Assembly (NCBI GenBank): GCA_017889545.1
Contig: JAGFZV010000011.1
Coordinates: 17,247 to 81,246 of the forward strand
Direction of reading: 5' to 3'
DNA length: 64,000 bases
Origin: Bacillota bacterium
Lineage (GTDB): Bacteria; Bacillota; Negativicutes; CTSoil-072
Position 1 is the stretch's first letter. Each line of letters opens with the position of its first letter. The notes under the pieces are model-generated. The model saw only the letters and a program-made list of their open reading frames with translations, did no database searches and was not told the DNA's origin. Both the position numbers and the translations under genes were made by a program. This document shows, one piece after another, positions 39,502-62,628 of the stretch.

Positions 39502-40866
39502 TTAGCGAGCTGGTTTTTCCGTTACATCGGCAAGCTGGTCAAGAGATTTGCCTTTGGTTTCTCTCTTAATGAAGACAAAGGCTGCCAATCCACCGATCAC
39601 TGCCGGAATAATATAGAACAGGAACGACATCTGCGGTCCCAGTTGCATTGCCATGATAGCCCCGGCAACGATCGGAGCCAGAGCCCCGCCAAGCCGGCCA
39701 AACGCTTGGCACCAAGCAACGCCCGTATTTCTAAACTCGGTTGGGTAACTTTCTGCCATCAGAGGCTGTACCGCCGTGATCGCATAGTTAATCGCAAAGC
39801 CCATGAAAATATTGGCTGCCAGAATGGCGTAGAAGCTGCCGCCGACAAAGGCCATAATCAGAATGGATGCGCCGCCAATGAAATAGCTCATAATCAGATT
39901 TGGTCTGCGGCCTATCTTTTCAGCGACAAAGCCGGTCGAACAGTTAGCAAAAATTGCAGCCGCATTATTAGCGATTGCCAAGCCATAAGCCGAAGTGAGC
40001 TTCAATCCTTTTTCCAACATTAAGGAAGGCAGCCAGGCATTGATGCCGTAAACGATGAAGCATCCGCAGAAGTAAGTAATCCAGACGCCCGCAGTTGCCA
40101 TCCGATATTCCTTGGAAAACAAAGCTTTCGGTCCAGCCACTTTGGGAACCGGCGGAACAGACAATAAGTTTGGATCCCAATTTGTTGATTTTCCAGTGGC
40201 CGTTTTCTCAATATATTTAAGAATTTCGACCGCTTCTTCCTTCCGCCCTTTATTGGCGAACCAATAAGCCGATTCATGCATTTTGAAGAAGATGAAAATT
40301 GAATATAAGAAAGGAATACCGCCGATCAAATAACAAATTCTCCATCCGTATTTCGCTACGAGCAGCGTAGGAATAAGACCGCCCAAAACCCAGCCAACGA
40401 TCATCCACGCCATACCGAAGGTGATAAAGAGAGCACGGTATCGGGTCGGTGTGCACTCGGAAAAAATCGTAGTAACTACCGGAATACAAGCACCTAGTCC
40501 AATTCCGGCGCAAACCCGGAAAAAGGCGAACTGTTCAAAACTTTGGGCAAAGTAGATCGGAATACTTAACAGGGAGTACATGGCGATAGCACCCACCAAG
40601 GTTTTTTTCCTGCCGATTTTGTCGGAAACAATACCGGAGATTGCACCGCCGAGGATCAAGCCGAAAAGACTCCAGGAAGACAAACTGCCTGTTTGTACTT
40701 TGGTCAAGCCCCATTCAGCCGATATTTGCGGCATGGTATAGGAAACGATCATATAGTCATAGCCATCGAACACCATGGACATACCGAGGAAAAAAAATAC
40801 AGCCCAGGTAAACTTGTTGACCCCCAATGAATCTATTACTTCAGAGATAGTAAAGTTCTTACTCAC
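39502..40866 (-). CDS. MFS transporter, aromatic acid:H+ symporter-like
   Basis: FDGYD, SDKIGRKK, FRVCAGIGLG, SECTPTRYR, ESYPTEFRNTG, GRLGG; GTG start after gaggagg. Confidence 0.82.
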   Translation of the reverse strand: MSKNFTISEVIDSLGVNKFTWAVFFFLGMSMVFDGYDYMIVSYTMPQISAEWGLTKVQTGSLSSWSLFGLILGGAISGIVSDKIGRKKTLVGAIAMYSLLSIPIYFAQSFEQFAFFRVCAGIGLGACIPVVTTIFSECTPTRYRALFITFGMAWMIVGWVLGGLIPTLLVAKYGWRICYLIGGIPFLYSIFIFFKMHESAYWFANKGRKEEAVEILKYIEKTATGKSTNWDPNLLSVPPVPKVAGPKALFSKEYRMATAGVWITYFCGCFIVYGINAWLPSLMLEKGLKLTSAYGLAIANNAAAIFANCSTGFVAEKIGRRPNLIMSYFIGGASILIMAFVGGSFYAILAANIFMGFAINYAITAVQPLMAESYPTEFRNTGVAWCQAFGRLGGALAPIVAGAIMAMQLGPQMSFLFYIIPAVIGGLAAFVFIKRETKGKSLDQLADVTEKPAR

Positions 40867-41120
40867 GCACATTCCTCCTCAAAATATAAATAATACCGTT
40901 GGTATTTCATAAATTGAACATTATTCGTGATCAATTGAACTTACAAAAGGCCGACTATTTGTGTCAAAATAGTAAGGACTCTGTATCTGTAATTTTTCAG
41001 CGAACTATTTGTCTCATATGCAACGGGATCCGGAATAAGAAATTGCTCATCTGACCATGAGTAACTCTTGTATCTGGATGCCTTTTTCTTTATCAAAGCG
41101 ACTTGCTGTTGGCTCTGATA

Positions 41121-43256: not shown

Positions 43257-43598
43257 CTAGACTACCGGAGCAAACATCATTACACGGGGGCCCTTTTCAG
43301 CCATTTTCTTGGCTAGTTCATCCAGCGGACCGTATTCCATGCATTGACCCAGGCAGTGAAGAACGCAAGATGGTACACCTTCTCTTGCCACACGATCTTC
43401 ACAAAGATCGCAAAGTTGAGTAGGAACCGCAATATAGTTCCATTCCCATTTATCCCCGGTCACTTGGAACGGGCCTACTTCAGTCAATTTAATGCCCCAC
43501 TTGCCATGAGGAATTTTATGCTCGTTCTTACAAGCAACTTCGCAGCTATGGCAACCTGTGCAATATTGGTAATCAATCAATAATCCGTTACGTGCCAT
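43257..43598 (-). CDS. Short 4Fe-4S subunit of the Mo-enzyme
   Basis: GLLIDYQYCTGCHSCEVAC, CDLC...CVLHC. Confidence 0.85.
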   Translation of the reverse strand: MARNGLLIDYQYCTGCHSCEVACKNEHKIPHGKWGIKLTEVGPFQVTGDKWEWNYIAVPTQLCDLCEDRVAREGVPSCVLHCLGQCMEYGPLDELAKKMAEKGPRVMMFAPVV

Positions 43599-43639
43599 TT
43601 ATTTCCCCTCCTGTCTCTATAATTGTCTGCTAGATCGAT

Positions 43640-45907
43640 TTACGCTTTAAATCCGACATCGGATTCTAACGAATCGACTCTGTAAACCTTGCAGATCATT
43701 TGTTTGAACGGTGCGCCGAAACCAAGTTTTCCAATGTGTTTGTGCGGCACAAGGGTATTAATATTCGATTCCCAAACGCCAAACAGACTCGGTTCTTCCG
43801 CTTTCTTCTCCGGATACCACCAGCCGTGAGTTGCATGAACGACTTTAGGATGGATAGTCGGCGTCAGATGCGCTCTTTCTTTTGCTTTACCGAACATGTT
43901 TTCCAAGCAAACCCAGTCGCCCTCTTTGATACCGAGTGCGGCAGCAGTCTCCGGATGGATTTCCATTTCCGGCCAAGGATCGATTTCACGCAATGTCGGA
44001 ATTTGTCTGTGCTCCGAATGGAAGGAAGTGAATTTTCTAGCTCCGGTTGTAAGGATCAAAGGATATTCTTTGAACAGCTCCGGAGTGCTGAACGGGCTGT
44101 ACGGTGGCTCTTTGAAGTACGGAAGCGCATCATCGCCCCATGCTTCGAACAGCGTTGAGCTCAACTCAACCATCCCCGTTACAGTATTAAAGCCAGGGTC
44201 GCCGTCGCCGCGCAATTGGCCGGTCTCATATTTTCGATAAGTATATTTCGGTTGATATACACCCATCTCTCTCAAGTCGTTGAAGTCAATGCCGAGTTCC
44301 GGTTTCAGCTGTTTGCTGAAGAAGTCTTCAACACTGTCAAACGGCCACATATTCGGGTGAAGTTTTTTGCCCAATTCAATGCAGACTTCGATATCGGATT
44401 TGCAATCGCCAGTTTCAAACGCTTTGTTGATCGCGCCCAGGAACACAGCGTTACGTCCGAAGTGTGTGACAACAACGCCATCATGCTCAGCAAACGTCGG
44501 CAACGGCAGGAAGATATCGCCAAATGCCATCGCAGTCGGAGTCATGAAGCAATCTTGCACCACGTTGAATTCCAAAGATTTCAATGCACGGTACCATCTG
44601 TCAGGCTGCGCCGAACAGGTAGGAGTAATGAAGTTGCTGCTGTTGAACCAGCCCATCCGCAGTCTGTATGGTTTGCCTGATTCAAGAGTATCCAACGTTT
44701 CATCCGGGTGAGTAGTAGCCATAGCAGTACTCAATGCAGGCCATTCTTTGGCGCCGATGCGTTTGTCCCAAAGCTCTTCGGACAGATTGCTCCGGGTTTC
44801 TACACGCCATTTGCCAAGCAATGCAGCAGGTGGCCCTAAGGTGATGCCGCCAGGCACGTCGAGGTTACCGGTAATAGCGGACAGCGAAAGGATCGCATGG
44901 CCGAGTTGTACGCCGTTCGGGTTTTCGTCAACAGCCAGACCCCACTGAATAGCGGAAGGCTTGTTGGTGGCGAATTCGCGAGCAACTTCTCTGATTTTTT
45001 CTGCAGAAACCCAAGTCAGGTCTGCAACTTTTTCAGGCGGATATTCCTGAACGCGTTCTTTCAGCTCATCAAAGCCATAGCACCAGTTGTCAACGAAATC
45101 ATGATCATAAAGATCTTCGTTGATGATAACATTGAGTAAGCCCAGTGCGAGAGCGGTATCGGAGCCAGGACGCAATTGCAGAACATATTCTGCTCTGGTG
45201 CCGAGCCAAGTAATCCGTGGGTCAACACAGATCATCTTCGTGCCGCGTTTCATCATGTCGATCAGGGAGTGACCGAAGAATCCATCAGGATTGGACATTA
45301 ATGGGTTTTTGCCCCATTCCATGATGTATTTCGGCAATACATAGTTCGGATTGTCATAACGATCCGGGTAAGTACCGGCAAAGTCAATTTCCGGATAGCC
45401 TGCACCCAGAATGTAGTCGGTAATCGAGCAACGAGGACCGTAGCAGGACCAGCCGCTCAACGGATAGCATACGTTAGGAGTACCAAGTGATGCGAAGCCC
45501 AGCGGATAGTAATACAAGCATGCTTCACGGCCGGTACCGCCGAATACAACGATTGATTCAGCGCCATGATCTTCCTTCAATTGTTTCACTTTAGGAACGA
45601 TGATATCCCACGCTTCATCCCAGGAAATCTTAGTCCATTTATCTTTACCGCGATCTTCAGGAGCACGCTTCATTGGGGATAAAATACGTTGCGGATGGTT
45701 TACAAATTCAGGAAGTGCTAAACATCTGACGCACAACCGGCCATTCGTAATAGGATGTTCAGGATCTCCCTCTACCTTTACAAGCTTACCGCCTTTAACG
45801 GTCAATTTCATTCCGCATCCAACCGGATGGTCTCCTGGCGGTGACCAACCGCAGGTTCTGACTGTGTAAGAGCCATCTTCGTTTTGCGTTTTCCACTCTT
45901 TTTTCAT
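43640..45907 (-). CDS. Molybdopterin oxidoreductase catalytic subunit, paralog C (catechol-dehydroxylase-like)
   Basis: CGWSPPGDHPVGC...GRLCVRC, GGTGR, WSCYGPR, FHSEHRQIP, HGWWYPE; no Tat signal. Confidence 0.9.
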   Translation of the reverse strand: MKKEWKTQNEDGSYTVRTCGWSPPGDHPVGCGMKLTVKGGKLVKVEGDPEHPITNGRLCVRCLALPEFVNHPQRILSPMKRAPEDRGKDKWTKISWDEAWDIIVPKVKQLKEDHGAESIVVFGGTGREACLYYYPLGFASLGTPNVCYPLSGWSCYGPRCSITDYILGAGYPEIDFAGTYPDRYDNPNYVLPKYIMEWGKNPLMSNPDGFFGHSLIDMMKRGTKMICVDPRITWLGTRAEYVLQLRPGSDTALALGLLNVIINEDLYDHDFVDNWCYGFDELKERVQEYPPEKVADLTWVSAEKIREVAREFATNKPSAIQWGLAVDENPNGVQLGHAILSLSAITGNLDVPGGITLGPPAALLGKWRVETRSNLSEELWDKRIGAKEWPALSTAMATTHPDETLDTLESGKPYRLRMGWFNSSNFITPTCSAQPDRWYRALKSLEFNVVQDCFMTPTAMAFGDIFLPLPTFAEHDGVVVTHFGRNAVFLGAINKAFETGDCKSDIEVCIELGKKLHPNMWPFDSVEDFFSKQLKPELGIDFNDLREMGVYQPKYTYRKYETGQLRGDGDPGFNTVTGMVELSSTLFEAWGDDALPYFKEPPYSPFSTPELFKEYPLILTTGARKFTSFHSEHRQIPTLREIDPWPEMEIHPETAAALGIKEGDWVCLENMFGKAKERAHLTPTIHPKVVHATHGWWYPEKKAEEPSLFGVWESNINTLVPHKHIGKLGFGAPFKQMICKVYRVDSLESDVGFKA

Positions 45908-46116: not shown

Positions 46117-46133
46117 TGCAATAAGCGTGCCAA
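46117..46133 (-). promoter_or_regulatory. sigma54 -24/-12 promoter
   Basis: TTGGCACGCTTATTGCA. Confidence 0.9.
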
Positions 46134-46314: not shown

Positions 46315-46533
46315 CTTTGCTTAATACTAAGATCGTTCGAAACGCTATGACGTTACGGAAGTCCAGCTTTTTCATTTCTATTTCCAGCAAATTTAAAATT
46401 CGGCAAAAAAATTAGAAGAAAGCACATCAAATGATTTGCTTTCTTCTAATTTAATCGGCAATATTTCCTATCTGGATGACTGTAATAGTATTGTGGCTGC
46501 TCAAATATGATCCTTCAGAACGGTACTATCCCG

Positions 46534-48222
46534 TTATAGTTTCATAACAGCGCCTTTGTCAGCAGAACTAGCCAGTTTGGAATAAACCGCAAGATAGCCT
46601 TTGGTATATTTCGGCTGAGGCCGCTGCCATGTGGCTAGCCGGTCGCCAATTTCCTGATCCGATACATGCAGATGCAAATTTCCGTTTGGAATATCAATCG
46701 TTATTTTATCGCCATTTTTTACAATGGCCAAAGGTCCGCCTTCAGCCGCCTCCGGCGATATATGGCCGACGAAGCAGCCGTTATTCGTGCCGGAAAAACG
46801 ACCATCTGTAATCAAGGCTGTTTTTTCTGCAAGCCCCATGCCATACATGTACTTCATTGCTTTGTACATTTCACGCATTCCCGGCCCGCCTTTGGGTCCT
46901 TCATAGCGAATGACAACAACATCGCCCTCGATAATTTTTCCGCCCAGGATCGCCTCTTCCGCCATTTCTTCCGAATCGAATACTTTGGCGCTGCCCGAAA
47001 ACGTATGCATATGCGGAACAATTGCCGCCGGTTTGGTGACAGCAGTATCCGGAGCAAGATTACCCCGCAGAATCGCTACCCCTTTGCCCTTGCTAAATGG
47101 TTCGTCGAATGAGCGAATGACATTCGCATCAAAAGGATATTTGAATTTATATTCCTGCAAATTCCGGCTAACCTCTTTGCCGCTGACCGTCATACTATCA
47201 AGATGCAGCAATGTTTCAATTTCCTTCATCACTTTGGGAATTCCGCCCGCTTTATAAAAATCTTCCATATCGTATTTTGAAGCAGGATTCACCTTCGCAA
47301 TTTGCGGCGTCGCTTCGCTAATCCGCTGATAGGCTTCCATCATCTGTTCTGCCGGGATGTCCAATTCCGCCGCAATGGCAGATAAATGAAGGATCGCATT
47401 CGTCGAGCCGCCTGTAGCCATCAAAACACGGGTAGCGTTCTCTAGAGATTTCATGGTCATAATCTGGTCCGCGTTAATTTGTTGAAGAACCAGATTGACA
47501 ATTGCTTTCCCGGTATCTTCGGCCAAACGGAGCCGCTCTGCATAAACAGCCGGTACCAATGCCCCGCCAGGCAAAGACATTCCCATCGCTTCCGCTAAAC
47601 AGCACATCGTATTAGCCGTCCCATAAAAAGCGCAGGAACCGCAGGACGGTCCGCACAGTTCTTCCAACTGATCGTACGCCGTCTCATCAATTTTGTGGCT
47701 TTTCAGCATGCCTAACGCTTCCGACATCGTCGTCAAATCCGATTTTCGCTTGTCAAATTCCACTCCGCCCAGCATTGGGCCGCCTGGCAGAAAAATGGCC
47801 GGTATTTTTAGGCGTGCTGCAGCCATCAGCATTCCGGGAACGATCTTATCACATGATCCAAGCAATACAATTCCATCCAGGCGATGCGCTTGGACCATCA
47901 CCTCAATATCATTGGCAATTAAATCCCGCGACGGCAGAATAAAATGCATTCCGGCATGGCCCTGTGCGGTTCCGTCACATGCGGCAATTACGCCGAACTC
48001 TGCTGTCGTCCCTCCGGCTCGATGTATTCCTTTGCGAACATGTTCTGCAACTTGGCGCAGGTTGGCGTGGCCCGGGACCAATTCATTCCACGAATTGGCA
48101 ATTCCAATCACCGGCCTGGACAAATCATCATCCGAATAGCCGATCGATTTGAAGACACTGCGGTTGAACGACCAATTAGGCTTGGTTAAAATATCGCTGC
48201 TGCGGCAACCCATGAAAACCAT
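46534..48222 (-). CDS. IlvD/Edd-family dihydroxy-acid dehydratase
   Basis: CDG, CDKIVPGM, GSCAFYGTANTM, RYEGPKGGPGM, TDGRFSG. Confidence 0.92.
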   Translation of the reverse strand: MVFMGCRSSDILTKPNWSFNRSVFKSIGYSDDDLSRPVIGIANSWNELVPGHANLRQVAEHVRKGIHRAGGTTAEFGVIAACDGTAQGHAGMHFILPSRDLIANDIEVMVQAHRLDGIVLLGSCDKIVPGMLMAAARLKIPAIFLPGGPMLGGVEFDKRKSDLTTMSEALGMLKSHKIDETAYDQLEELCGPSCGSCAFYGTANTMCCLAEAMGMSLPGGALVPAVYAERLRLAEDTGKAIVNLVLQQINADQIMTMKSLENATRVLMATGGSTNAILHLSAIAAELDIPAEQMMEAYQRISEATPQIAKVNPASKYDMEDFYKAGGIPKVMKEIETLLHLDSMTVSGKEVSRNLQEYKFKYPFDANVIRSFDEPFSKGKGVAILRGNLAPDTAVTKPAAIVPHMHTFSGSAKVFDSEEMAEEAILGGKIIEGDVVVIRYEGPKGGPGMREMYKAMKYMYGMGLAEKTALITDGRFSGTNNGCFVGHISPEAAEGGPLAIVKNGDKITIDIPNGNLHLHVSDQEIGDRLATWQRPQPKYTKGYLAVYSKLASSADKGAVMKL

Positions 48223-48244
48223 CCTTTCTTTTCATCGCATGATA

Positions 48245-49252
48245 TTATTGTTTCTTATTCTTGGCCAATTCAATAGCCACATCAATAATCATGTCTTCTT
48301 GTCCGCCTACGGTTTTTCTCTGTCCCAGTTCCATTAAAATATCACGGGCATCAACGCCGAATTTCTCAGCCGCGCGGCGGCTATGCAGCAAAAAGCTGCC
48401 ATATGCTCCCGCATACCCGATCGCCAGCGTATCCGCATTAATGCTTTGCGGGCGGTGCATCAATTTTTCCACCACGTCTCTGCTCATATCCATCAATTTG
48501 TACAAGTCAACGCCAGTTGTATACCCGCCTTTGTGCAACACTGCCACCAGCGCTTCAAGCTGTGAATTACCGGCTCCGGCCCCTAGCCCGCAAACCGTTG
48601 CATCGACAGATGTCGCCCCAGCCTGGATTGCTGCAAAAGTATTGCCTATGGCTAATCCCAAATTATTATGGGCATGAAACCCTACAGGAATGGATAATTC
48701 CCGGCAAACCAATCCTATTCTCGCCGTTATATCGGTCGGCAGCATTGCCCCGGCAGAATCGGTAACATAAACCATATCCGCCCCATAACTTTCGAACTTC
48801 TTGGCCTGCTCAAGAATCTTTTCCGGTGGCGCCATATGTGACATCATAAGAAAGCCAATGGCTTCCAGTCCATTGTTTTTCGCAAATTTGATATGTTGTT
48901 CTCCGGCATCAGCTTCTGTGACATGCGTAGCAACCCGCACCGTTTTCACGCCATATTCCATTGCCGCTTCCAGATCTTCAACTGTTCCAATGCCCGGAAT
49001 AAGCAAAACCGCGAGTTTGGTCTTTTTTAAAACTTGCGAAACCGCCTTGAAATATTGCGCTTCCGGCGCTCTGGAAAAACCATATTGAATGGAGGATCCG
49101 CCCAGCCCGTCTCCATGTCCTACTTCAATCGTGTCAACCCCGGCGTCGTCCAGCTTGGATGCGATGACAGCCATTTGCTCCGGAGTGAATTGATGACTGA
49201 CGGCATGCATTCCATCCCGCAAAGTGCTATCAATAATACGAATTGATTTCAT
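48245..49252 (-). CDS. dmpG: 4-hydroxy-2-oxovalerate aldolase
   Basis: DSTLRDGMH, EVGHGDGLGGSS, HAHNNLGL, VGGQEDMI. Confidence 0.95.
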   Translation of the reverse strand: MKSIRIIDSTLRDGMHAVSHQFTPEQMAVIASKLDDAGVDTIEVGHGDGLGGSSIQYGFSRAPEAQYFKAVSQVLKKTKLAVLLIPGIGTVEDLEAAMEYGVKTVRVATHVTEADAGEQHIKFAKNNGLEAIGFLMMSHMAPPEKILEQAKKFESYGADMVYVTDSAGAMLPTDITARIGLVCRELSIPVGFHAHNNLGLAIGNTFAAIQAGATSVDATVCGLGAGAGNSQLEALVAVLHKGGYTTGVDLYKLMDMSRDVVEKLMHRPQSINADTLAIGYAGAYGSFLLHSRRAAEKFGVDARDILMELGQRKTVGGQEDMIIDVAIELAKNKKQ

Positions 49253-50133
49253 CAGATAGCCCCCTCGTGTTTTAATGTGGCATATCGCTCGGCTACAGTG
49301 ACTGCAGCAGCAGTAATAATATCAAGATTCCCGGAATATTTGGGCAGATAATCGCCTGCGCCTTCCACTTCCACTACCGTGACCACACGGTCTCCGTCCG
49401 CATAGGGCAAAACTTTGATGCGGTATCCCGGTGAATAGCGCTGCACCTTGGCAACCATGCCCTCCACTGATTTTACAATCGCATTAATCTTGTTGGAGTC
49501 GCATAATGTATAGATCGTGTTCCGCATCATAATCGGCGGTTCGGCAGGATTCAAAATAATAATCGCTTTTCCCTCTTTTGCACCGCCCACCTTAATTAAA
49601 GCGCTTCGGGTAGTCTGGGTAAATTCGTCAATGTTCTGCCGCGTTCCAGGGCCGGCACTGCGGCTGCTCAGCGTGACAACGATCTCCGCATATTGAACCG
49701 GCGCAACTTGATTAATCGCGTAAACAATAGGAACCGTCGCCTGCCCGCCGCAAGTAACCATATTAATATTATCTTCCCGAAAAAGGTGTTCATCGATATT
49801 AACGGAAGGAATGACATAGGGACCAACTGCGGCCGGAGTCAGATCCACGGCAAAAATGCCTGCTTGTTTCAATAGTGGCGCATGCTGATGATGAGCGCTT
49901 GCACCCGTAGCATCAAATACAACATCCAAACCAGGAAACGCAAGTACACCGTCAATCCCCTTATCGGTTGTGGCAATTCCATACCCGGCAGCCAATTCCA
50001 AGCCTTGCGACCCTGGCACAATCCCGGCCATCAGACTCATTTCCAACACTTTGCTGCGTCTAATCTTCATCATCAAATCAATACCGATATTACCTGGACC
50101 GATGATTGCTGTTTTTAGTTTTTTTTCTTCCAA
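49252..50133 (-). CDS. dmpF: Acetaldehyde dehydrogenase (acylating)
   Basis: [45 protein letters not shown]. Confidence 0.95.
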
Positions 50134-50189: not shown

Positions 50190-50270
50190 GCTGTTCATGT
50201 TTTTTCTACCACTTTTACTTTATCTTAATAGCGCGTTTACTGTCAATACTAAATTAATTGTCTATTTAAA

Positions 50271-51077
50271 TTATTTAACCGCACTCGCTTTTTGTTTGCC
50301 CCGGTATCCCAAACGCCCGGAAATCTGCATGGCCGCTTTTGCAACATTTTCTGCAATTTGTTCTATATTATGGAAACGGTTAGCCGGACCGGAAAGGCTG
50401 ATGGCTGCAATTACCGTCCCCTGGTTGTCTTTTATTGGCGCGGCAACGCACTGCAGGTCAGGTTCGATTTCTTCCATGTCTAATGCATAACCCATTTCAC
50501 GGATTCTGCGCAATTGTTCGAGCAAGGCATTCGTATCAGAAACTGTATTCTTCGTGAACTTCTGAAACTGTTTGCCTGCATACATTTCTGTTACTTTATT
50601 TTCACTTAGCCCAGACAATAATACTTTGCCAACACCGGTACAATATGCAGGGTTCCGTCCGCCGATCCGGGTTCGGATTCCTATGGAAGAACGAGATTCA
50701 TCGACTTTATCGATATAAACAACATCATCCCCGGAAAGGACAGCAAGATGTGCCGTTTCTTGGTAAAGTATCGACAGTTCCCGCAAGTCCGGCAAAGCGA
50801 TTTCCCGCAAATCAAGATTCGCAGCGTACGCTTGGCCAAGTTCAAAAGTTTTTAAACCAAGCGAATATTTTCCGGTAACGGGGTCCTGCTGCAGATAACC
50901 ATATTTCTCTAATGTAGCGATCAAACCATGCGCAGTGCTCTTACTCAACCCCATTTTTTGGCTCACTTCCGTTAAACTGATCACATTGTCATTTTCCGCC
51001 ACACACTCCATTATCTTTAGGGCGCGAAATACGGATTGTATATGACGTTCGCCGTCACTACCATGTTTGACTATCAT
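50271..51077 (-). CDS. IclR-family transcriptional regulator
   Basis: HTH SLTEVSQKMGLSKSTAH, CTGVGKVLL, AAISLSGP. Confidence 0.93.
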   Translation of the reverse strand: MIVKHGSDGERHIQSVFRALKIMECVAENDNVISLTEVSQKMGLSKSTAHGLIATLEKYGYLQQDPVTGKYSLGLKTFELGQAYAANLDLREIALPDLRELSILYQETAHLAVLSGDDVVYIDKVDESRSSIGIRTRIGGRNPAYCTGVGKVLLSGLSENKVTEMYAGKQFQKFTKNTVSDTNALLEQLRRIREMGYALDMEEIEPDLQCVAAPIKDNQGTVIAAISLSGPANRFHNIEQIAENVAKAAMQISGRLGYRGKQKASAVK

Positions 51078-51268
51078 AAATAAAGCCACACTCCTTAGTG
51101 CGATATTACAGAACCAAGTTCGGCTATTATTTCACAAAAAAATTTTGCTCGTTTCCTTTGTACTGCCATGTAGATCAGTTTATTTCGTAAAAACTAAACC
51201 GATCTACATGTATACTAGCATAGTTTCCCAAGCATATCAACGAATACATCGGCAAACGCCGCTTTTCC

Positions 51269-55979: not shown

Positions 55980-56630
55980 CTATTTTTTCGCTGCAACTTG
56001 TTGGTACCACTTGCTGTTATGATGTTTGGCAAAATCTTCTTCAATATAACCGCTGCCTAACATCGTCTTGAGTTCTTTGCTGGAAGATGGATTAACAGCC
56101 GCAAGATAACCGTGCACAATCACGCCGCACCCCAGAAAGATGCCGGAAAACGAATGGAGCAAGTACGCCCAGCGTACCAGAGCCGGTGATACATTTTGAT
56201 AATAGATCATTACCAAACCGCTGGCCGCCAGCAAGCACGAGAAAAAGATGACCATCAAGCCGAGCATTTTTTGTCCGGCATTGTACTTGTCCTGCGGAGG
56301 CACTTCCCCTTTAAGAAAAGGCTGCAAATAGCCGCCGCCTACCTTAAGCCACTGTAAATCATCGGCCGTGTAATGAGTAATCGTGCTCAAGAAACGCTTG
56401 AAAAGACCAAAGTTCAAAACGATGTAAATCAATGGGACAACGATATAGGCATATCCCAAATATCGATGAACAGCAGCCGCGTTTTTCAATCCCCCGAAGA
56501 TCACCGCAAGAAAATGCAGCTTAGGACTAAAGATCGCCAAGCCAGAGCATAGGAGCAAGAGAAATACGATGAGATTGACCCAATGGAAAATTCGGGTAGG
56601 CGTTTCGTGTTTCAAAACATAGCCTTTCAT
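55980..56630 (-). CDS. fdnI: Formate dehydrogenase cytochrome b subunit
   Basis: RIFHW, HRYLG, KYNAGQK, heme His pairs. Confidence 0.9.
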   Translation of the reverse strand: MKGYVLKHETPTRIFHWVNLIVFLLLLCSGLAIFSPKLHFLAVIFGGLKNAAAVHRYLGYAYIVVPLIYIVLNFGLFKRFLSTITHYTADDLQWLKVGGGYLQPFLKGEVPPQDKYNAGQKMLGLMVIFFSCLLAASGLVMIYYQNVSPALVRWAYLLHSFSGIFLGCGVIVHGYLAAVNPSSSKELKTMLGSGYIEEDFAKHHNSKWYQQVAAKK

Positions 56631-56634
56631 AATC

Positions 56635-57459
56635 CTACATATCCCCCTTTCCGTTGCCGGCATCATGGTCTGACGAATGGTTGTCATTCTGGCCTCGCTG
56701 CATCAAACGATGCACAATGGTGACTCCAAAAGCGCCGGCCATCATCAAGAGACCCAGCGGATTGAAAAAATCCTTCCAGACAGTGACTTCAACAGGGATT
56801 TTCGGATTAGCAGGAAGGCCATAATGCTGCGGCGCGTATTTGAGCACCGGAACAATGCCAAGCCCGCCCAGGCTATTGGCCTCATATACATTGGCATCCT
56901 GGTATCCGCGTGATTTCAGCCATTCCACTCTTTTTTGCGCTTTTGCGAGCATGGCTGTGCGGTCGCCAAATTCCATGGCGCCAGCCGGACAGGTTTTCAC
57001 GCAAGCCGGAATAGAGGTCCGTTCTTTATCGTTGCCGCTTTGCGTACGGCTAAGACACATGTCACATTTGTTTACATTTTTACCAATGCTCGGTATCGAG
57101 AAGGGACAAGCATTATGACAGTAACCGCAGGAAATACATTTGTCCTGGTCGACAGCCACGATCCCATTTTCCGTTTTGGACAAAGCGCCGCTCGGGCACA
57201 CTTTTACACAAGCCGGGTCGCCGCAATGAAAACACTGGTACTTGAGGAAGTTGAGGTTCATCGGGTTCGTGTCTTTTTCCATGCCTTCGTAGTAACGCAT
57301 AATCATCCGGGTATCCGGACTTAACGCAGGCGGATTGCCATAGCCTGTTGTAAAATGAGTTTTTACTGCTTTTTCCTGGTTCCACTGTTTGCAGGAGATC
57401 TGGCAGCCATGGCAGCCAACGCACTTGGAACTGTCGAAATAATATGCGACTCTTGCCAT
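56635..57459 (-). CDS. fdnH: Formate dehydrogenase Fe-S subunit
   Basis: CVGCHGCQISCKQWN, four cluster motifs, C-terminal TM helix. Confidence 0.92.
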   Translation of the reverse strand: MARVAYYFDSSKCVGCHGCQISCKQWNQEKAVKTHFTTGYGNPPALSPDTRMIMRYYEGMEKDTNPMNLNFLKYQCFHCGDPACVKVCPSGALSKTENGIVAVDQDKCISCGYCHNACPFSIPSIGKNVNKCDMCLSRTQSGNDKERTSIPACVKTCPAGAMEFGDRTAMLAKAQKRVEWLKSRGYQDANVYEANSLGGLGIVPVLKYAPQHYGLPANPKIPVEVTVWKDFFNPLGLLMMAGAFGVTIVHRLMQRGQNDNHSSDHDAGNGKGDM

Positions 57460-57462
57460 TGG

Positions 57463-60456
57463 CTACACCCTCCTTATATTGACCATGAATGATTTGTATT
57501 CCGGAATGCGGGAATTGGGATCGCCGCCGGCCAATGTAACCTGGTTCGCAACGTGGACATCTTTCGTTTCACTCATCGGGTCAATACCGGTAAAGCCCCA
57601 GTTCCATGGCATTCCCAGAAGATGAATTTTCTTGCCATCCACAACGAAAGGCTGGATACGGGGAGTTACAAACGCTTTGGCTTTTACCTTGCCGCGGATG
57701 GAGGATACTTCAACCCAATCACCCAATGCAATATTTTTTTGTTTCGCCAATTCCGGGTCAATTTCTACGAACAATTCAGGCATTGCCTCAACCGTGGTTG
57801 TCAGTTTCCTTGTAATGTTGCCGCTCTGGTAATGTTCAGCCACACGATACGTAGTGCACATATAGGGGAAATCTGCATCGCCTACGGCCGAAAACTTGTC
57901 ATAAACAGATTTAAAGGTAACGGCCAGTGGATTATTCTGCGATGATCCGATCATATTTTGAACGGGAGACTCTAATGGCTCATAGTGCTCCGGCCACGGT
58001 CCTTCCGCCGTCATTCCGCCTGGAGCAAACAACCGGCCATGACCGCCGCCAATCATAATAAACGGCGCCGTCCCTAAAGGAGCATCCGGAGCACGTCCGC
58101 CGATGAAGTCAGGCACATCAATCCCCGACCACGCTTTTTTCACGGCATCCCAGCGAACCAGCGCCTTTTTATCGCTCCAAGGGTTCCCTGCCAAATCGCA
58201 GGAAGCGCGATTATAGAGGATGTGGCGGTTCATTGGCCACGTCCAGCCCCACTCAAGGTTGAGGTTGATCCCCGATTTTTCACGGATACGCCGTTTAGCC
58301 AGGTTACCGGCAGGCGGATACAGGCCGCAATAAATCCAACAGCCGCTTGCCGTTGATCCATCGTCCTTCAGTGCGGCAAACCCAGGCAGCTGGGCCTTGG
58401 TATTGACATCCCAGCCATTGATTTCCTTGAAAACCGAGTCCGCATCATAATGATGCCCATCGCCATAGTTCCAGGTCAAGTTGACAATCGGATCAGGGAA
58501 AACAGCACCAGGATCATTGGCGTACAGTTTTTTCAATTCCTGGACCAATAAGTTCAGGATCGCTCCGTCTTCTTTGCAATCACCAATCGGATCGACTGAC
58601 TTGTAGCGCATTTGCAGCAACCGACCGGTATTGGTGGCGGAACCGTCCTTTTCAACCATCGATGCGGCTGGCAACAAGAAGACTTCGGTATTAATCTGTT
58701 TGGGATCGACTCCGGGACGCTTCCAAAAACGGGCCGTTTCCGACTCGAAGAGGTCCACACACAGAAGCCATTCCAAGTTTCCCAGCCCATTGACCGTTTT
58801 TTCATAGTTCGGTCCGGAAACAACCGGGTTCATACCCCAAATCATCAAGCCTTTCAATTTGGAATCCACCATGTCATTAAACATGTCCATCCAAGAATGG
58901 GGACGGGAAAACTTCGGCAGCCAATCGTAACAAAAGTCATTTTCTTTGGTTGCCTTGTCGCCCCAAAAGGCTTTGAGCATGCTAACCATGTATTTGGGGG
59001 AATTTTCCGCCCAACTGTCTTTGACTGTGATTTTTTCCTTGAAAACATTCAAGTTCGGATGGTTTTTGACGTGGGGTGCAGGCAGATAGCCGGGCAGATT
59101 GCCAAACAGCAGCGCCATGTCAGTGGACCCTTGTACATTCGCCTCACCGCGCATCGCATTCACTCCGCCGCCAGGAACGCCCATATTACCGAGCAGGAGC
59201 TGCAAGATGCAAAAGCCGCGAATATTTTGCGTACCGACCGTATGCTGCGTCAATCCCATCGCATAAACCAGGCACCCTGATTTGTCCGGGACGCCCGTAG
59301 CCGAATAGGTCTCGCAGATTTTAGTGAATAATTCTTTCTTCATGCCGGTTACTTTTTCTACCGTCTCCGGAGTATAACGGCTGTAGAAAGTAAGCATGCG
59401 TTGGAAAACACAGTTCGGATCTGCCAAAGTCATATCCTGCAGCGCTTTGCCGTCTGGTCCGGTTTGGTAAGCCCAGCTGTCATAATTGTACGCTTTCTTG
59501 GCTTCGTCCCAGCCGCTGAAATAACCATCTTTAAAAGCAAACTCCGGCTTCAGCAGGTAGCTGGCATTGGTATAATGACGAACATAGGCATCAAAATATT
59601 TTTTTTGCTGCAGCACATAGTTAACCATTCCATTAAAAAAGACGATGTCCGTACCGGGGCGTATCGGCGCATAGATATCGGACAAAACAGAAGTCTTTGT
59701 ATATCGTGGATCTACAGAGATTACCGTACCGCCCTTGTCACGGGCGCGGTTAATAAAGCGGGCAATGCCAGGATGGTTTTCGGCAGGATTTCCGCCGCAA
59801 ATCATGACTACATCAGCATTCGCCACGTCGGTTAACGGTTGAGTCATGGCGCCACGGCCGAATGAAGGTGACAAACTTGCCACCGTAGAGCTGTGTCAAA
59901 TACGCGCCTGATGCTCAATATTCACAATTCCCAGGGAACGGGCAAGTTTGGAAAGAAGATAACATTCATCCGTATCGTGAGAAGCTCCGCCCAGATGGCC
60001 CAGTGCATTGGCTCGGTTGGCGATCACCTCCCCGTCTTTTATCGTAAAGTTGGCGTCGCGGGTTTTCTTGATTCGCTTCGCGATTTCAGGAATAGCCCAG
60101 CTCCATTCTTTTTCTTCCCATTGATCCGAGCCCGGCGCACGATAAAGAATTTTTTGAAGTCGTTTGGGGCTGGCATATACTTCGTAGGCCGAAGCTCCTT
60201 TGCCGCAAAGACCTCCTTCGTTATTTGGGTTATCCGGATCGCCTTCCACGTTAATGACTTTGCCATCTTTAGCATACACCAATAAACCACAGCCTACACC
60301 ACAATAGATGCATACGGAAGGGCTTACCTTAGTATCTTTCAGACGGTACGGCGTAGCCGAAGCCATCGCCGGAACGGCGGCGTTACCTTGCCACATAGCA
60401 GCAGCAGTACCTGCAGCCACCAGCTTGAGGAACGTTCTTCTGCTAACAGTTCCCAT
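57463..60456 (-). CDS. fdnG: Selenocysteine formate dehydrogenase-N alpha subunit (Tat-exported), 997 aa, Sec187
   Basis: SRRTFLK Tat signal, CIYCGVGC...C, in-frame TGA at 59896-59898 in EHQARI-U-HSSTV; joins ORF-track entries 59896..60684 and 57463..59883. Confidence 0.95.
59867..59884 (-). promoter_or_regulatory. Bacterial SECIS hairpin
   Basis: GGUGGCA-AGUU-UGUCACC starting 11 nt after the UGA, with G in the loop. Confidence 0.75.
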
Positions 60457-60489
60457 ATGTTTTCTCCTCCCATTAAAATTTTTCTTATC

Positions 60490-60595
60490 CTTCTTTCCAC
60501 AATGGGAGGCATGATGGTTTCCCAACATACCCTGCAGGTCCAGACGCCATGAAAGAAAATTCATTGCCTTTTTAGGCAGCCCGAACTCGAAGAAC
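60490..60595 (-). ncRNA. Moco RNA motif lacking P3 (Tuco-type)
   Basis: UUCGAG..CCUAA..AUGG, CAGGGU, GAAAC, GCCUCCC-AUUG-UGGAAAG; no P3 between P2 and P4; upstream of fdnG. Confidence 0.8.
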
Positions 60596-60774
60596 ATTAT
60601 AGTGTTAACCCAGGGTTCACGCAATAAGCAATGCAACAACAAATAATTGTATTTTACGAAGTATCTGTCTGCATGCAGCAGCATTCAACCATGGGGCCAC
60701 CTCATTTCCAGCAGATTTTATACAGTTTACACGATATATATCATTAGCAGTAAATGTGTTTCCTCTTCGTGCAT

Positions 60775-62628
60775 TTATCCGAGACCCAGTCTGTTTATCG
60801 TAGTTAACAACGGTCGCCCATGATCATCCCAACCTCTGGCCGCATAATACTCGATCAGCATAGCGGCAAGCGGCGGCAAATTGTCTGCCGCTCCACCGTC
60901 AGGACGGGGAACTTCGGCAATACGCCGGGGCAAAGTGTCGTCCAAGCTGGATATGCCGCATTGCACGTTAAACATTCGTTTTATCGTAAAAATACGTTCA
61001 CCGGCAGTCAATACCTCTTCAACAGTGTAATTAAATCCGGTTAACGCATTAAGCCAACCTGTGATTATTGTCAGGTCGATTCCGCCATAAAAAAGAAATT
61101 TGCATAACTTAAGCGAGTCCATAACCGACATCGTATTCTGCAGACAGGCTTGGACAAAACCCTGGTTGTCAGCACGAAACCGGTCCAACACTTCCATAAT
61201 TCCGATTTCAGGCAAAATAGCCACTTTTTCAAAAAAATAACTGCCGCCTTGCAAATGGCAAGCCCCGCGATTGGAAGTGGCATAGCCGAGCGCCAAGCTG
61301 TTGAAAGCCCGCGGGTCATGCGCCGGCAACTCAAGACCTTTGACATGAAACGCATAGTCTTCTGTCCCGTTGCCAATCGCCTCTGCCGCCCGCCTAACAC
61401 CCTGTCCCAGCAATTTGCCAATCCCCCGCTGACGGCCTATCGAATGGAGAAGCGAGATCATCGCCTTGGCATCGCCCCATAGCGGCTTTAACTGCTGACC
61501 ATCAACATCGGTAATATCAGCGTCAGCAATTAGTCCTTGTTCATAAATATCCATCAGGAACGCAATCGCCCCGCCGCTGGATATCGTGTCAATCCCATAC
61601 CGGTTGCATATTTCGTTGGCCTGAACAATGGCGTCCAGATCAGACACCATGCAGGCGCCGCCAAACATGCCCAACGTTTCGTATTCCGGTCCCTTGCCGT
61701 CAACCGAGCCATAACCGCTCTCACTTTTGACGGTCCGACCGCAGGATACCGGACAGGAATGGCATTTCGATTTTCCTTTGACTATGCTGTCAGCCATGGT
61801 TTGTCCGGATATTTTATCAATTTCAGACCAAGTCCCCTGCGACCAATTCTTTACTGGCAAATCACCAATTCGTTCCGATCCGATCAAAGCGCCGGCTGTA
61901 CCATAATCCTGCAGACCTTTGGTTTTTTCTGCAATTCCAGGAGTTACGGCATCTATTTGAGCCTGCAGCGCAACCCTGTCATAGACCGCAATCGGGTTAT
62001 CGCCCTTTACAACAACGGCCTTCAGGTTTTTAGAACCCATCACGGCGCCCAGTCCGCCCCGGCCTGCTGAACGGCCCTTTTTCCCCTCATGAAGGATCGT
62101 AGCAATGAGAACTTGGTTTTCGCCGGCAGGACCAATGCTGGCTACTGCGATATCCTGGCCATGCCGCTCCTGCAGCACTTCATTCACTTGATAGTTATCC
62201 AGTCCCCATAAAAAATTGGCATCCAAAATCTGCACGCATTTTTCATGAACAAAAGCATACGCCGGACGTTCTGATTTCCCCTTGAATACCAAGCCGTCGA
62301 ATCCAGCCCGCTTTAACACGGCGCCCCACTTGCCGCCGGCATCCGCTTCGCCATAAATCTCAGTCAACGGCGACTTCGTCACCACTTGATGCCGTCCCGA
62401 ACCGGGAATATTCGTCCCCGTCATGGGACCGGTCATAAAAATCAAAGGATTGTCCGGACTCAACGGATGCGTGTCAATCTTGCACTCCTCCATTAAAATC
62501 TTGGCTCCCATGCCGCTGCCGCCAAGCCACAGCCGTTTATCCTGCTCAGAAGTGGTCCGACATTCCATATGTCCAGCGGTTAAATCAATATAGGCAATAT
62601 TTCCGGTATAGCCGCCAACAGTCATCAT
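60775..62628 (-). CDS. aor: Aldehyde:ferredoxin oxidoreductase (tungsten AOR family)
   Basis: KSPLT, AGRGGLGAVMGSKNLK, CHSCPVSC, EYET, DTIS, NRGACH, C-terminal YYAARGWD. Confidence 0.92.
   Translation of the reverse strand: MMTVGGYTGNIAYIDLTAGHMECRTTSEQDKRLWLGGSGMGAKILMEECKIDTHPLSPDNPLIFMTGPMTGTNIPGSGRHQVVTKSPLTEIYGEADAGGKWGAVLKRAGFDGLVFKGKSERPAYAFVHEKCVQILDANFLWGLDNYQVNEVLQERHGQDIAVASIGPAGENQVLIATILHEGKKGRSAGRGGLGAVMGSKNLKAVVVKGDNPIAVYDRVALQAQIDAVTPGIAEKTKGLQDYGTAGALIGSERIGDLPVKNWSQGTWSEIDKISGQTMADSIVKGKSKCHSCPVSCGRTVKSESGYGSVDGKGPEYETLGMFGGACMVSDLDAIVQANEICNRYGIDTISSGGAIAFLMDIYEQGLIADADITDVDGQQLKPLWGDAKAMISLLHSIGRQRGIGKLLGQGVRRAAEAIGNGTEDYAFHVKGLELPAHDPRAFNSLALGYATSNRGACHLQGGSYFFEKVAILPEIGIMEVLDRFRADNQGFVQACLQNTMSVMDSLKLCKFLFYGGIDLTIITGWLNALTGFNYTVEEVLTAGERIFTIKRMFNVQCGISSLDDTLPRRIAEVPRPDGGAADNLPPLAAMLIEYYAARGWDDHGRPLLTTINRLGLG

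Follow-up and report, generated by a model that had tools for sequence, protein, structure and literature searches.

A probable aldonic acid operon in Negativicutes that joins DmpFG to a divergent IlvD-type dehydratase

The channelling complex of the aldehyde dehydrogenase DmpF and the aldolase DmpG is a textbook component of aerobic aromatic meta-cleavage. In E. coli, the L-rhamnonate operon yfaX(rhmR)-rhmD-yfaV(rhmT)-yfaU(rhmA) encodes a regulator of the IclR type, a dehydratase for an acid sugar, an importer of the ACS family within the major facilitator superfamily (MFS), and a metal-dependent pyruvate aldolase whose reaction frees an aldehyde. Dehydration of a sugar acid by homologues of dihydroxy-acid dehydratase (DHAD) has been proposed for SalH, from the salinosporamide pathway, and FdrB, from Streptomyces sp. 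MA37, both of which are proposed to convert 5-chlororibonate into 5-chloro-4-hydroxy-2-oxopentanoate. Here we describe an operon, iclR-dmpF-dmpG-ilvDx, which follows the same logic as the E. coli rhm genes and in which an IlvD/Edd-family dehydratase (IlvDx) accompanies DmpF and DmpG. It lies in a window of 64,000 nucleotides, the whole stretch of DNA analysed, on contig C50 of a 3.27-Mb Negativicutes genome (G000) near Pelosinus. We consider it probable that this is an inducible catabolic operon for an imported organic acid, most likely an aldonic acid bearing hydroxyl groups at C2, C3, and C4.

The three core genes are all on the minus strand. dmpF (49252-50133, with a TTG start) encodes a 293-aa CoA-acylating aldehyde dehydrogenase matching TIGR03215, dmpG (48245-49252) encodes a 335-aa class II pyruvate aldolase of the 4-hydroxy-2-oxovalerate aldolase type matching TIGR03217, and ilvDx (46534-48222) encodes a 562-aa dehydratase with ILVD_EDD_N and ILV_EDD_C domains, a member of what we call the 'TNNG' clade. 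The first-pass annotation had named these genes at these positions, and hidden Markov models (HMMs) support all three family assignments.

We sorted the DmpG orthologues of 301 Negativicutes genomes by their neighbours. The arrangement IclR-DmpF-DmpG-IlvDx was found in 13 genomes, representing four families and five genera, and an MhpD-like hydratase together with DmpF and DmpG in 16. Four genomes encode a DmpG with neither partner, three of them with GlcD/E/F-like oxidase genes. Outside the Negativicutes, relatives 73-78% identical to IlvDx are linked to DmpFG in five other gene orders: IclR-IlvDx-MFS-DmpG-DmpF in the alphaproteobacterium Telmatospirillum siberiense; LysR / DmpF-DmpG-IlvDx-Gate-domain transporter (locus L090); IclR-DmpF-DmpG-IlvDx-SDR (L087); IclR-GntP permease-IlvDx-SDR-DmpF-DmpG (L144); and IlvDx-MFS-2-hydroxyacid dehydrogenase-DmpF-DmpG (L145). 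The SDR-family protein of the glucose-1-dehydrogenase subfamily beside IlvDx is orthologous in three lineages (51-57% identity). Inspection of phylogenetic trees revealed that IlvDx and its relatives form a single clade while the DmpGs linked to them are polyphyletic: those of the Negativicutes fall within the hydratase-linked DmpGs of that class, the Telmatospirillum protein is the sister of Pseudomonas DmpG (1NVM), and the L087 and L090 DmpGs branch elsewhere. It therefore appears that one dehydratase lineage joined ordinary DmpFG modules several times. On the sequence evidence, this repeated joining is the strongest indication that IlvDx and DmpFG are functionally coupled, and, given that the partners are standard DmpFG modules, the dehydratase product would be accepted by an unmodified DmpG.

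DmpF and DmpG themselves look like an ordinary pair. DmpF scores 429 bits on TIGR03215 (acetylating acetaldehyde dehydrogenase; cut-off 282), has the AcetDehyd-dimer dimerisation domain, and conserves the catalytic cysteine motif TCGGQAT in an alignment to its best solved relative, 7Z3S; 1NVM_B also matches. DmpG, the only one encoded in the genome and adjacent to its DmpF partner, scores 508 bits on TIGR03217 (cut-off 286), has HMGL-like and DmpG_comm (communication) domains, and aligns to 1NVM_A with 353 bits. It retains all of the key residues R17, D18, H21, L88, I90, H200, H202, Y291, G323, and G324 (DmpG numbering). These residues, which serve catalysis, metal binding, stereocontrol, and the channel, are the same whether DmpG is linked to IlvDx or to a hydratase (with I or L at position 90), and identity between the two groups reaches 78%. 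Within the Negativicutes, the columns that discriminate them are A298S and position 265 in DmpG and T252, R25, and position 51 in DmpF; A298S is absent from the DmpGs of Telmatospirillum and L087. We looked to these residues for a clue to a new aldehyde and set the idea aside, there being only two or three such columns and none of note. In the related aldolase BphI, Leu87 and Tyr290 impose strict (4S) specificity while Leu89 restricts chain length (PMC3962088). The equivalents of the first two, Leu88 and Tyr291, are retained in all 13 linked DmpGs. Because these BphI-type residues are kept, the expected substrate of DmpG is a (4S)-type 4-hydroxy-2-oxoacid that yields a short aldehyde.

IlvDx is an intact member of the IlvD/Edd superfamily. 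Both domains are present (PF00920 at 1.6e-121, PF24877 at 1.4e-72), and its motifs AACDGTAQGH, GSCDKIVPG, GSCAFYGTANTM, GRFSGTNNG, and HISPEA preserve the catalytic apparatus described for the superfamily, in which cluster cysteines, a catalytic serine, and Mg ligands have been assigned (PMC5770437): the three cysteines of CDG, CDK, and GSC, the serine of TDGRFSG, and the glutamate of SPEA. Its 675 bits on TIGR00110 (ilvD) exceed the cut-off of 618. It is nevertheless one of five IlvD/Edd paralogues in the genome and ranks fourth of them on this model (C22, 781 bits; C27, 763; C38, 685; C7, 513), being 46-47% identical to the C22, C27, and C38 copies and 36% identical to the C7 copy. This disposes of IlvDx as the sole or housekeeping ilvD, as does the location of ilvC on C41, away from it. 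The search for a separate ilvD recommended in the first-pass annotation thus succeeded in that other copies exist, those on C22 and C27 scoring higher, though not in placing one in an ilv operon, since ilvC adjoins none of the five paralogues; no ilv gene lies near ilvDx. A better-scoring IlvD accompanies IlvDx or another TNNG member in 12 of the 12 genomes examined. IlvDx is therefore probably an accessory Fe-S dehydratase rather than the principal branched-chain DHAD of the cell.

The specificity-determining regions of IlvDx depart from those of DHADs. Mutagenesis has identified the SGxx motif and a position on the recognition helix as specificity hot spots, and sugar-acid dehydratases are distinguished by a threonine that immediately follows S-G and by an aromatic helix residue (PMC5770437; PMC9314677). 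Where canonical DHADs have DG[IS][AS]MG, SGGT or SGA[ST], REML.PT, GSC[AG]G[LM]FTAN, and S-P-N-R-A on the recognition helix, the IlvDx clade has CDGTAQG, GRFSGTNNG, REMYKAMKY, GSCAF[YL]GTAN, and (W)-S-F-N-R, respectively. By the DHAD hot-spot rule, position 73 of the helix carries a small residue or proline; IlvDx has Phe, in S-F-N-R. IlvDx passes the TIGR00110 score but departs from the DHAD pattern at the hot spots as well as in its standing among the paralogues. Nor does it have the full signature of the sugar-acid dehydratase (SADHT) class, which it resembles at two hot spots only: Thr554 is present but is followed by Asn, GCDKTT is replaced by SCDKIV, the C-terminus (...GAVMKL) lacks the His, and the score on NF009559 is 460 bits against a cut-off of 882. 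The substitutions relative to DHADs are invariant in the 120 closest database clusters (71-100% identity), and most are also found in Clostridia relatives at 61-64% identity. A phylogenetic tree groups IlvDx with its relatives in a clade that has 100/100 support and a long stem; canonical Firmicute IlvDs, the DHADs of Synechocystis and M. tuberculosis, and paralogues of the C38 and C7 types all fall outside it. Close relatives, 71-100% identical to IlvDx, make up more than 100 clusters at the 90% identity level and are spread over Bacillota, Alphaproteobacteria, and Acidobacteriota. Judged by these features, IlvDx appears best placed in a clade of its own.

The enzyme that would normally feed DmpG, a meta-cleavage hydratase, is not encoded with DmpFG here, as it is at 16 other Negativicutes DmpFG loci. 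Its absence, as first claimed, holds for the contig that carries the window, on which no FAA-hydrolase or MhpD-type gene was found, but not for the whole genome, where three FAA-family genes are located on C33, C3, and C40. The last of these (C40:31834-32652) encodes an MhpD-like hydratase that scores 315 bits against the dmpE cut-off of 409 and falls under every family cut-off. The check for an mhpD elsewhere was therefore positive as to the gene itself, yet the gene is monocistronic, flanked by helicase and EamA transporter genes, and no MhpD/DmpE-type hydratase was found in 10 of the 14 genomes carrying dmpFG-ilvDx, including complete Sporomusa and Telmatospirillum genomes. The C40 hydratase is 74% identical to that of a complete hydrolase-MFS-hydratase-DmpFG operon at L076, and it may be the remnant of a lost classical operon. 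Taken together, the repeated rebuilding of the linkage and the missing hydratase in 10 of 14 carriers bear out the original suggestion that a dehydratase of the IlvD family stands in for the meta-cleavage hydratase in supplying DmpG and DmpF.

In the route we propose, IlvDx would dehydrate its substrate across C2-C3 to give a 4-hydroxy-2-oxoacid, which DmpG would cleave to pyruvate and a short aldehyde. The aldehyde would then be channelled to DmpF for oxidation with NAD+ and CoA to an acyl-CoA. Such a pathway would need three enzymes and no kinase and would keep the aldehyde as a thioester, features useful to fermenters and acetogens. The dehydration chemistry, already put forward in the first-pass annotation, has its published analogue in SalH and FdrB acting on 5-chlororibonate. 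The reaction order, substrate, flux direction, and control by IclR are inferred. The minimal set of genes (regulator, acid importer, IlvDx, DmpG, and DmpF) implies that the substrate is probably an imported 2,3,4-trihydroxy acid for which dehydration alone must precede the aldol split. The MFS transporters of these clusters are orthologous in Pelosinus, the g11 genus, Telmatospirillum, and L145 (58-75% identity). They share 34-40% identity (244-289 bits) with YfaV of the E. coli L-rhamnonate operon and 19-26% (40-97 bits) with DgoT, GarP, GudP, ExuT, and LgoT, so that 'closest to YfaV' refers to six ACS-family transporters of E. coli K-12; their scores on the HpaX model (343-363 bits) are below its cut-off. 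In L144 the MFS is replaced by a GntP permease of the aldonate type. Judging by homology, the YfaV/RhmT-like MFS and GntP permeases would indicate uptake of an aldonic acid.

By our own reasoning from the Cahn-Ingold-Prelog (CIP) rules, acids of the L series match the (4S) geometry at C4, namely 5-deoxy-L-lyxonate, 5-deoxy-L-arabinonate, L-rhamnonate, L-lyxonate, and L-arabinonate. The first of the possible substrates, though less likely than not, is an L (4S) 5-deoxy-pentonate, giving acetyl-CoA; acetaldehyde, and hence this class of acid, is favoured because the DmpG pocket is hydrophobic and unmodified and because standard DmpFG modules have been used repeatedly. A 6-deoxyhexonate of the L-rhamnonate type, giving lactoyl-CoA, comes a close second as a likewise doubtful candidate, favoured on grounds of ecology and by analogy with the Rhm pathway. 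L-lyxonate or L-arabinonate, which would give glycolaldehyde, and tetronates, which would give formaldehyde, are less likely. More broadly, and with confidence that stops somewhat short of an even chance, we suggest that the TNNG clade comprises distinct, horizontally mobile, oxygen-sensitive aldonate dehydratases which, with DmpFG, turn an omega-deoxy aldonate into pyruvate and a channelled acyl-CoA. On that suggestion, the imported acid may be of the 5-deoxy-L-pentonate or L-rhamnonate type and the pathway a counterpart of the Dahms and Rhm pathways. A similar logic of dehydratase, aldolase, and aldehyde enzyme seems, by analogy, to be followed in a Clostridium locus, where a clade member 71% identical to IlvDx is found with a DHDPS-type aldolase, a lactaldehyde-reductase-like Fe-dependent alcohol dehydrogenase (Fe-ADH), and an aldo-keto reductase. 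An FAH-family hydrolase at the same locus has as its best, if weak, match a hydrolase of the L-rhamnonate pathway.

Several observations weigh against the proposed route. The hydrophobic, unaltered pocket predicted for DmpG argues against polar aldehydes such as lactaldehyde. We know of no natural source of 5-deoxy-L-pentonates, and a literature search on 5-deoxyribonate catabolism returned no paper mentioning 5-deoxyribonate. No acid importer adjoins the operon in the window; the nearest MFS gene (39502-40872) is of an aromatic-acid type and lies beyond a separate unit encoding a Mo-enzyme. The orphan MhpD-like hydratase is found in both G000 and its congener G008, and the position of IlvDx above the curated DHAD cut-off makes DHAD activity possible. 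Further, clade members 74-75% identical to IlvDx occur without DmpFG: that of Aliiruegeria stands alone by LysR genes, and in Korobacteraceae (Acidobacteriota; L086 and L088) a TNNG IlvD is encoded between meaB and the genes for methylmalonyl-CoA mutase, with transcarboxylase genes upstream, in a metagenome-assembled genome with nine IlvD/Edd paralogues. The clade members at L146, with a split transketolase and an alcohol dehydrogenase (ADH), and at L009, with an Aco-like 2-oxoacid dehydrogenase complex, likewise have no aldolase nearby. Since some members have no aldolase nearby, the TNNG clade may serve several downstream modules or several substrates.

A different order of reactions deserves consideration, though we think it very unlikely. 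DmpG and DmpF could convert an imported 2-keto-3-deoxygluconate (KDG)-like acid into pyruvate and glyceraldehyde, and thence glyceroyl-CoA and glycerate, with IlvDx acting last to dehydrate glycerate to pyruvate. This order gains some backing from the dehydration of D-glycerate by DHAD-family enzymes, as described (PMC6982167; PMC9314677), and from the LarA-type racemases beside some clusters, which could interconvert L- and D-glycerate. It would require a CoA-transferase or thioesterase from outside the conserved core, and it sits poorly with the ordinary hydrophobic pocket of DmpG, whereas a dehydratase that feeds DmpG directly explains the minimal conserved set with no missing step. LarA was also considered as a constant partner of the dehydratase in its own right and rejected; it recurs, though as differing subfamilies (unassigned, LarAH10, and group 22), and none is present at the window locus.

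Very unlikely too, in our view, is the origin of the substrate proposed in the first-pass annotation, in which 5-deoxy-D-ribose derived from the radical SAM by-product 5'-deoxyadenosine is oxidised, for example by AOR, to 5-deoxy-D-ribonate and passed through IlvDx and DmpG/DmpF to pyruvate and acetyl-CoA. The chemistry is sound and parallels that of SalH and FdrB on a 5-halo-5-deoxyribonate. An ordinary, unaltered DmpFG suits acetaldehyde as the product, and the SDR beside IlvDx in three lineages could oxidise a deoxysugar. BCADHT-type DHAD accepts D-ribonate, of (2R,3R) configuration, which also favours 5-deoxyribonate. The stereochemistry at C4 does not fit: again by CIP-rule reasoning, D-series 5-deoxypentonates are (4R) and would yield (4R)-4-hydroxy-2-oxopentanoate, whereas every one of the 13 linked DmpGs retains the (4S)-determining residues. 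The genome also probably has another means of disposal. A block at C25:62974-68055 encodes MTAP (309 bits; cut-off 275), MtnA (445 bits; cut-off 279), AhcY, a class II aldolase, and a protein resembling MTA/5'-deoxyadenosine deaminase; its MTAP-MtnA-class II aldolase genes look like the set of the known dihydroxyacetone phosphate (DHAP) shunt. All 14 carrier genomes encode MtnA. Radical SAM enzymes are universal, yet the cluster is found in only 13 of the 301 Negativicutes, and its acid importers and substrate-type regulators (IclR/LysR/GntR) suit an operon for an external nutrient, not housekeeping salvage. No dehydrogenase that would make the acid belongs to the conserved core. An AOR gene does exist in the window, at 60775-62628, as had been reported; its suggested role as aldose oxidase was discarded, as the gene is not syntenic, lying 10.6 kb from the operon beyond chemoreceptor and formate-dehydrogenase genes, and none of 15 orthologous loci has an AOR gene closer than some 236 kb. 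Disposal of 5'-deoxyadenosine would be expected to show broad co-occurrence, an acid-forming enzyme, D-ribo-compatible stereochemistry, and the lack of any other route, and none of these was observed.

Least probable of all, by a small margin, is that IlvDx is a redundant branched-chain DHAD placed here by chance or for regulatory reasons, with DmpFG fed by the C40 hydratase: a score above the TIGR00110 cut-off, the MhpD-like gene in G000 and G008, and the clade members outside any aldolase context speak for it, but the linkage occurs in 13 genomes and arose anew in other phyla and in five further gene orders, 10 of 14 carriers have no hydratase, two IlvD copies (C22 and C27) score better, no ilv gene is nearby, and the C40 hydratase gene is monocistronic.

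The organisation of the locus is that of a compact operon, which we continue to read as one for an imported aldonic acid. dmpF and dmpG overlap (ATGA), and the gap between dmpG and ilvDx is 22 nt; homologues in the databases have 559 aa, so that ilvDx probably starts in reality at M4 (48213). The gene iclR (50271-51089, minus strand), encoding an IclR-family regulator with HTH_IclR and IclR_C domains, is 137 nt upstream of dmpF. Its product has BhcR and KdgR as best NCBIfam matches, each under the cut-off, and is 29% identical to E. coli YfaX. An orthologue (60-73% identity) is found 5' of dmpF at the Pelosinus, Sporomusa, and g11 loci, and the protein is likely the regulator of the operon. 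A consensus scan alone predicts a sigma-70-like promoter (TTGACA-18-TAAAGT, 10/12 positions) on the minus strand in the iclR/dmpF gap, at 50217-50246. About 85 nt 3' of the ilvDx stop, direct reading of the sequence suggests a hairpin resembling an intrinsic terminator (46405-46449, minus strand), ttagaagaaagc / gctttcttctaa followed by T7, with a 12-bp stem, a 14-nt loop, and seven T's; a simple terminator scan did not list it, owing to the 14-nt loop. This hairpin is likely the end of the operon. A sigma-54-type promoter, TGGCAC-N5-TTGCA, can be read directly from the minus strand at 46117-46132, 5' of a molybdopterin oxidoreductase gene (43640-45907, minus strand) that is the next gene 3' of ilvDx. 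As the hairpin and this separate promoter both precede the oxidoreductase gene, the unit would end at ilvDx, and the predicted transcription unit is (iclR)-dmpF-dmpG-ilvDx.

The molybdopterin oxidoreductase and Fe-S genes (43257-45907) were accordingly rejected as members of the pathway, given the intervening hairpin and promoter and a synteny confined to the congener G008. This unit, on the minus strand, encodes a 755-aa enzyme and a truncated-looking 113-aa Fe-S protein. A paralogue encoded on C18 is 47% identical to the 755-aa enzyme, the genome encodes several others at greater distance, and the gene for the 755-aa enzyme is found 3' of ilvDx only in G000 and G008. Elsewhere in the window (57463-60684, minus strand), a molybdopterin oxidoreductase is divided into two ORFs by one in-frame TGA at 59896-59898 (..R-I-TGA-H-S-S..) and is most likely the selenocysteine-containing alpha subunit of a formate dehydrogenase. 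Genes for an Fe-S subunit (56635-57459) and a cytochrome b (55980-56687) follow it.

A second acid-sugar module is located in G000 at C7:41483-50047. It encodes a DUF1537 four-carbon acid-sugar kinase, PdxA2, LarA, and a 593-aa IlvD paralogue ('IlvD2'), together with EamA, DeoC, and PMM. In Sporomusa (L060:10797-16908 and L056:40-6132), genes for a sigma-54 activator, a DUF1537 kinase, IlvD2, and a PanB-like protein adjoin the dmpFG-ilvDx operon. It is only an idea that the PanB-like enzyme might be a tetrahydrofolate (THF)-dependent retro-aldolase for 4-hydroxy-2-oxobutanoate.

Other DmpFG operons of the Negativicutes differ in what precedes the aldolase step. At L078, L079, and L080, IclR-DmpF-DmpG genes are followed by genes for a GlcD/GlcE/GlcF-like FAD and CCG Fe-S oxidase, and both the hydratase and IlvD are missing; this suggests that 4-hydroxy-2-oxovalerate is formed by oxidation of a 2,4-dihydroxy acid. 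There are thus three kinds of DmpFG feeder in the Negativicutes alone: a hydratase, an IlvD-type dehydratase, and a GlcDEF-like oxidase. A hydratase-linked DmpFG operon at L064:2594-9096, in another Negativicutes genome, is preceded by genes for a ferredoxin/BFD protein, a protein of 474 aa that matches nothing in Pfam, a QRPTase-like protein, and a MoCF-domain protein, and a BenE transporter gene follows DmpFG. This operon may belong to an anaerobic pathway for an N-heteroaromatic or aromatic acid.

A literature search for the dmpFG-ilvDx pair in Sporomusa or Pelosinus found nothing, and we found no description in the searchable literature of a three-enzyme route from an aldonate to pyruvate and an acyl-CoA. 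If our proposal is correct, a large IlvD clade, whose members annotation pipelines now name 'dihydroxy-acid dehydratase', would acquire a role in catabolism, and it would follow that strict anaerobes use DmpFG as a general 4-hydroxy-2-oxoacid module with interchangeable upstream enzymes. An ATP-independent three-enzyme route from an aldonic acid to pyruvate and an acyl-CoA would be of practical interest in biocatalysis. The finding opens no long-standing question.

Compared with the described systems, the operon combines parts of several. DmpG and DmpF are bona fide members of their families as known from the lower meta-cleavage module MhpD/DmpE-DmpF-DmpG (BphHIJ), with its catalytic, stereo-determining, and channel residues; the difference lies upstream, where IlvD-type dehydration of a polyhydroxy acid would replace hydration of a dienol. 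The likeness to SalH and FdrB is one of reaction type, by description: IlvD-family dehydration of an acid of the 5-substituted 5-deoxy-ribonate type. Those enzymes are biosynthetic and actinobacterial, act on a substrate of D (4R-type) configuration, and are followed by a 2-oxoacid decarboxylating enzyme and no aldolase. In the pentonate routes of the Dahms pathway (CcXyDHT and RlArDHT), an IlvD/Edd dehydratase is likewise followed by an aldolase that gives pyruvate and an aldehyde, and IlvDx has in common with these dehydratases the threonine at S-G-T and the aromatic recognition-helix residue. IlvDx is nonetheless nearer to DHADs (446 bits to 6NTE, against 358 to RlArDHT and 222 to CcXyDHT), lacks their GCDKTT motif and C-terminal His, and has a CDG cysteine typical of the 4Fe-4S type, while its aldolase and dehydrogenase partners form the channelled DmpFG pair.

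The comparison with the E. coli rhm operon rests on architecture and on homology of the transporter and regulator. The gene order in Telmatospirillum mirrors yfaX-rhmD-yfaV-yfaU, and the Telmatospirillum IclR protein is 37% identical to YfaX. The enzymes differ: the dehydratase is an Fe-S IlvD/Edd protein, not a member of the enolase superfamily, and is not homologous to RhmD; DmpG, an HMGL-like TIM barrel with a communication domain, is not of the HpcH/HpaI type and is not homologous to RhmA; and a CoA-acylating DmpF is added, which would convert the aldehyde to a thioester. By analogy with these pathways, the system is best read as a non-phosphorylative acid-sugar route of the Rhm/Dahms type, with a distinct IlvD clade as its dehydratase and the channelled DmpFG pair after it.

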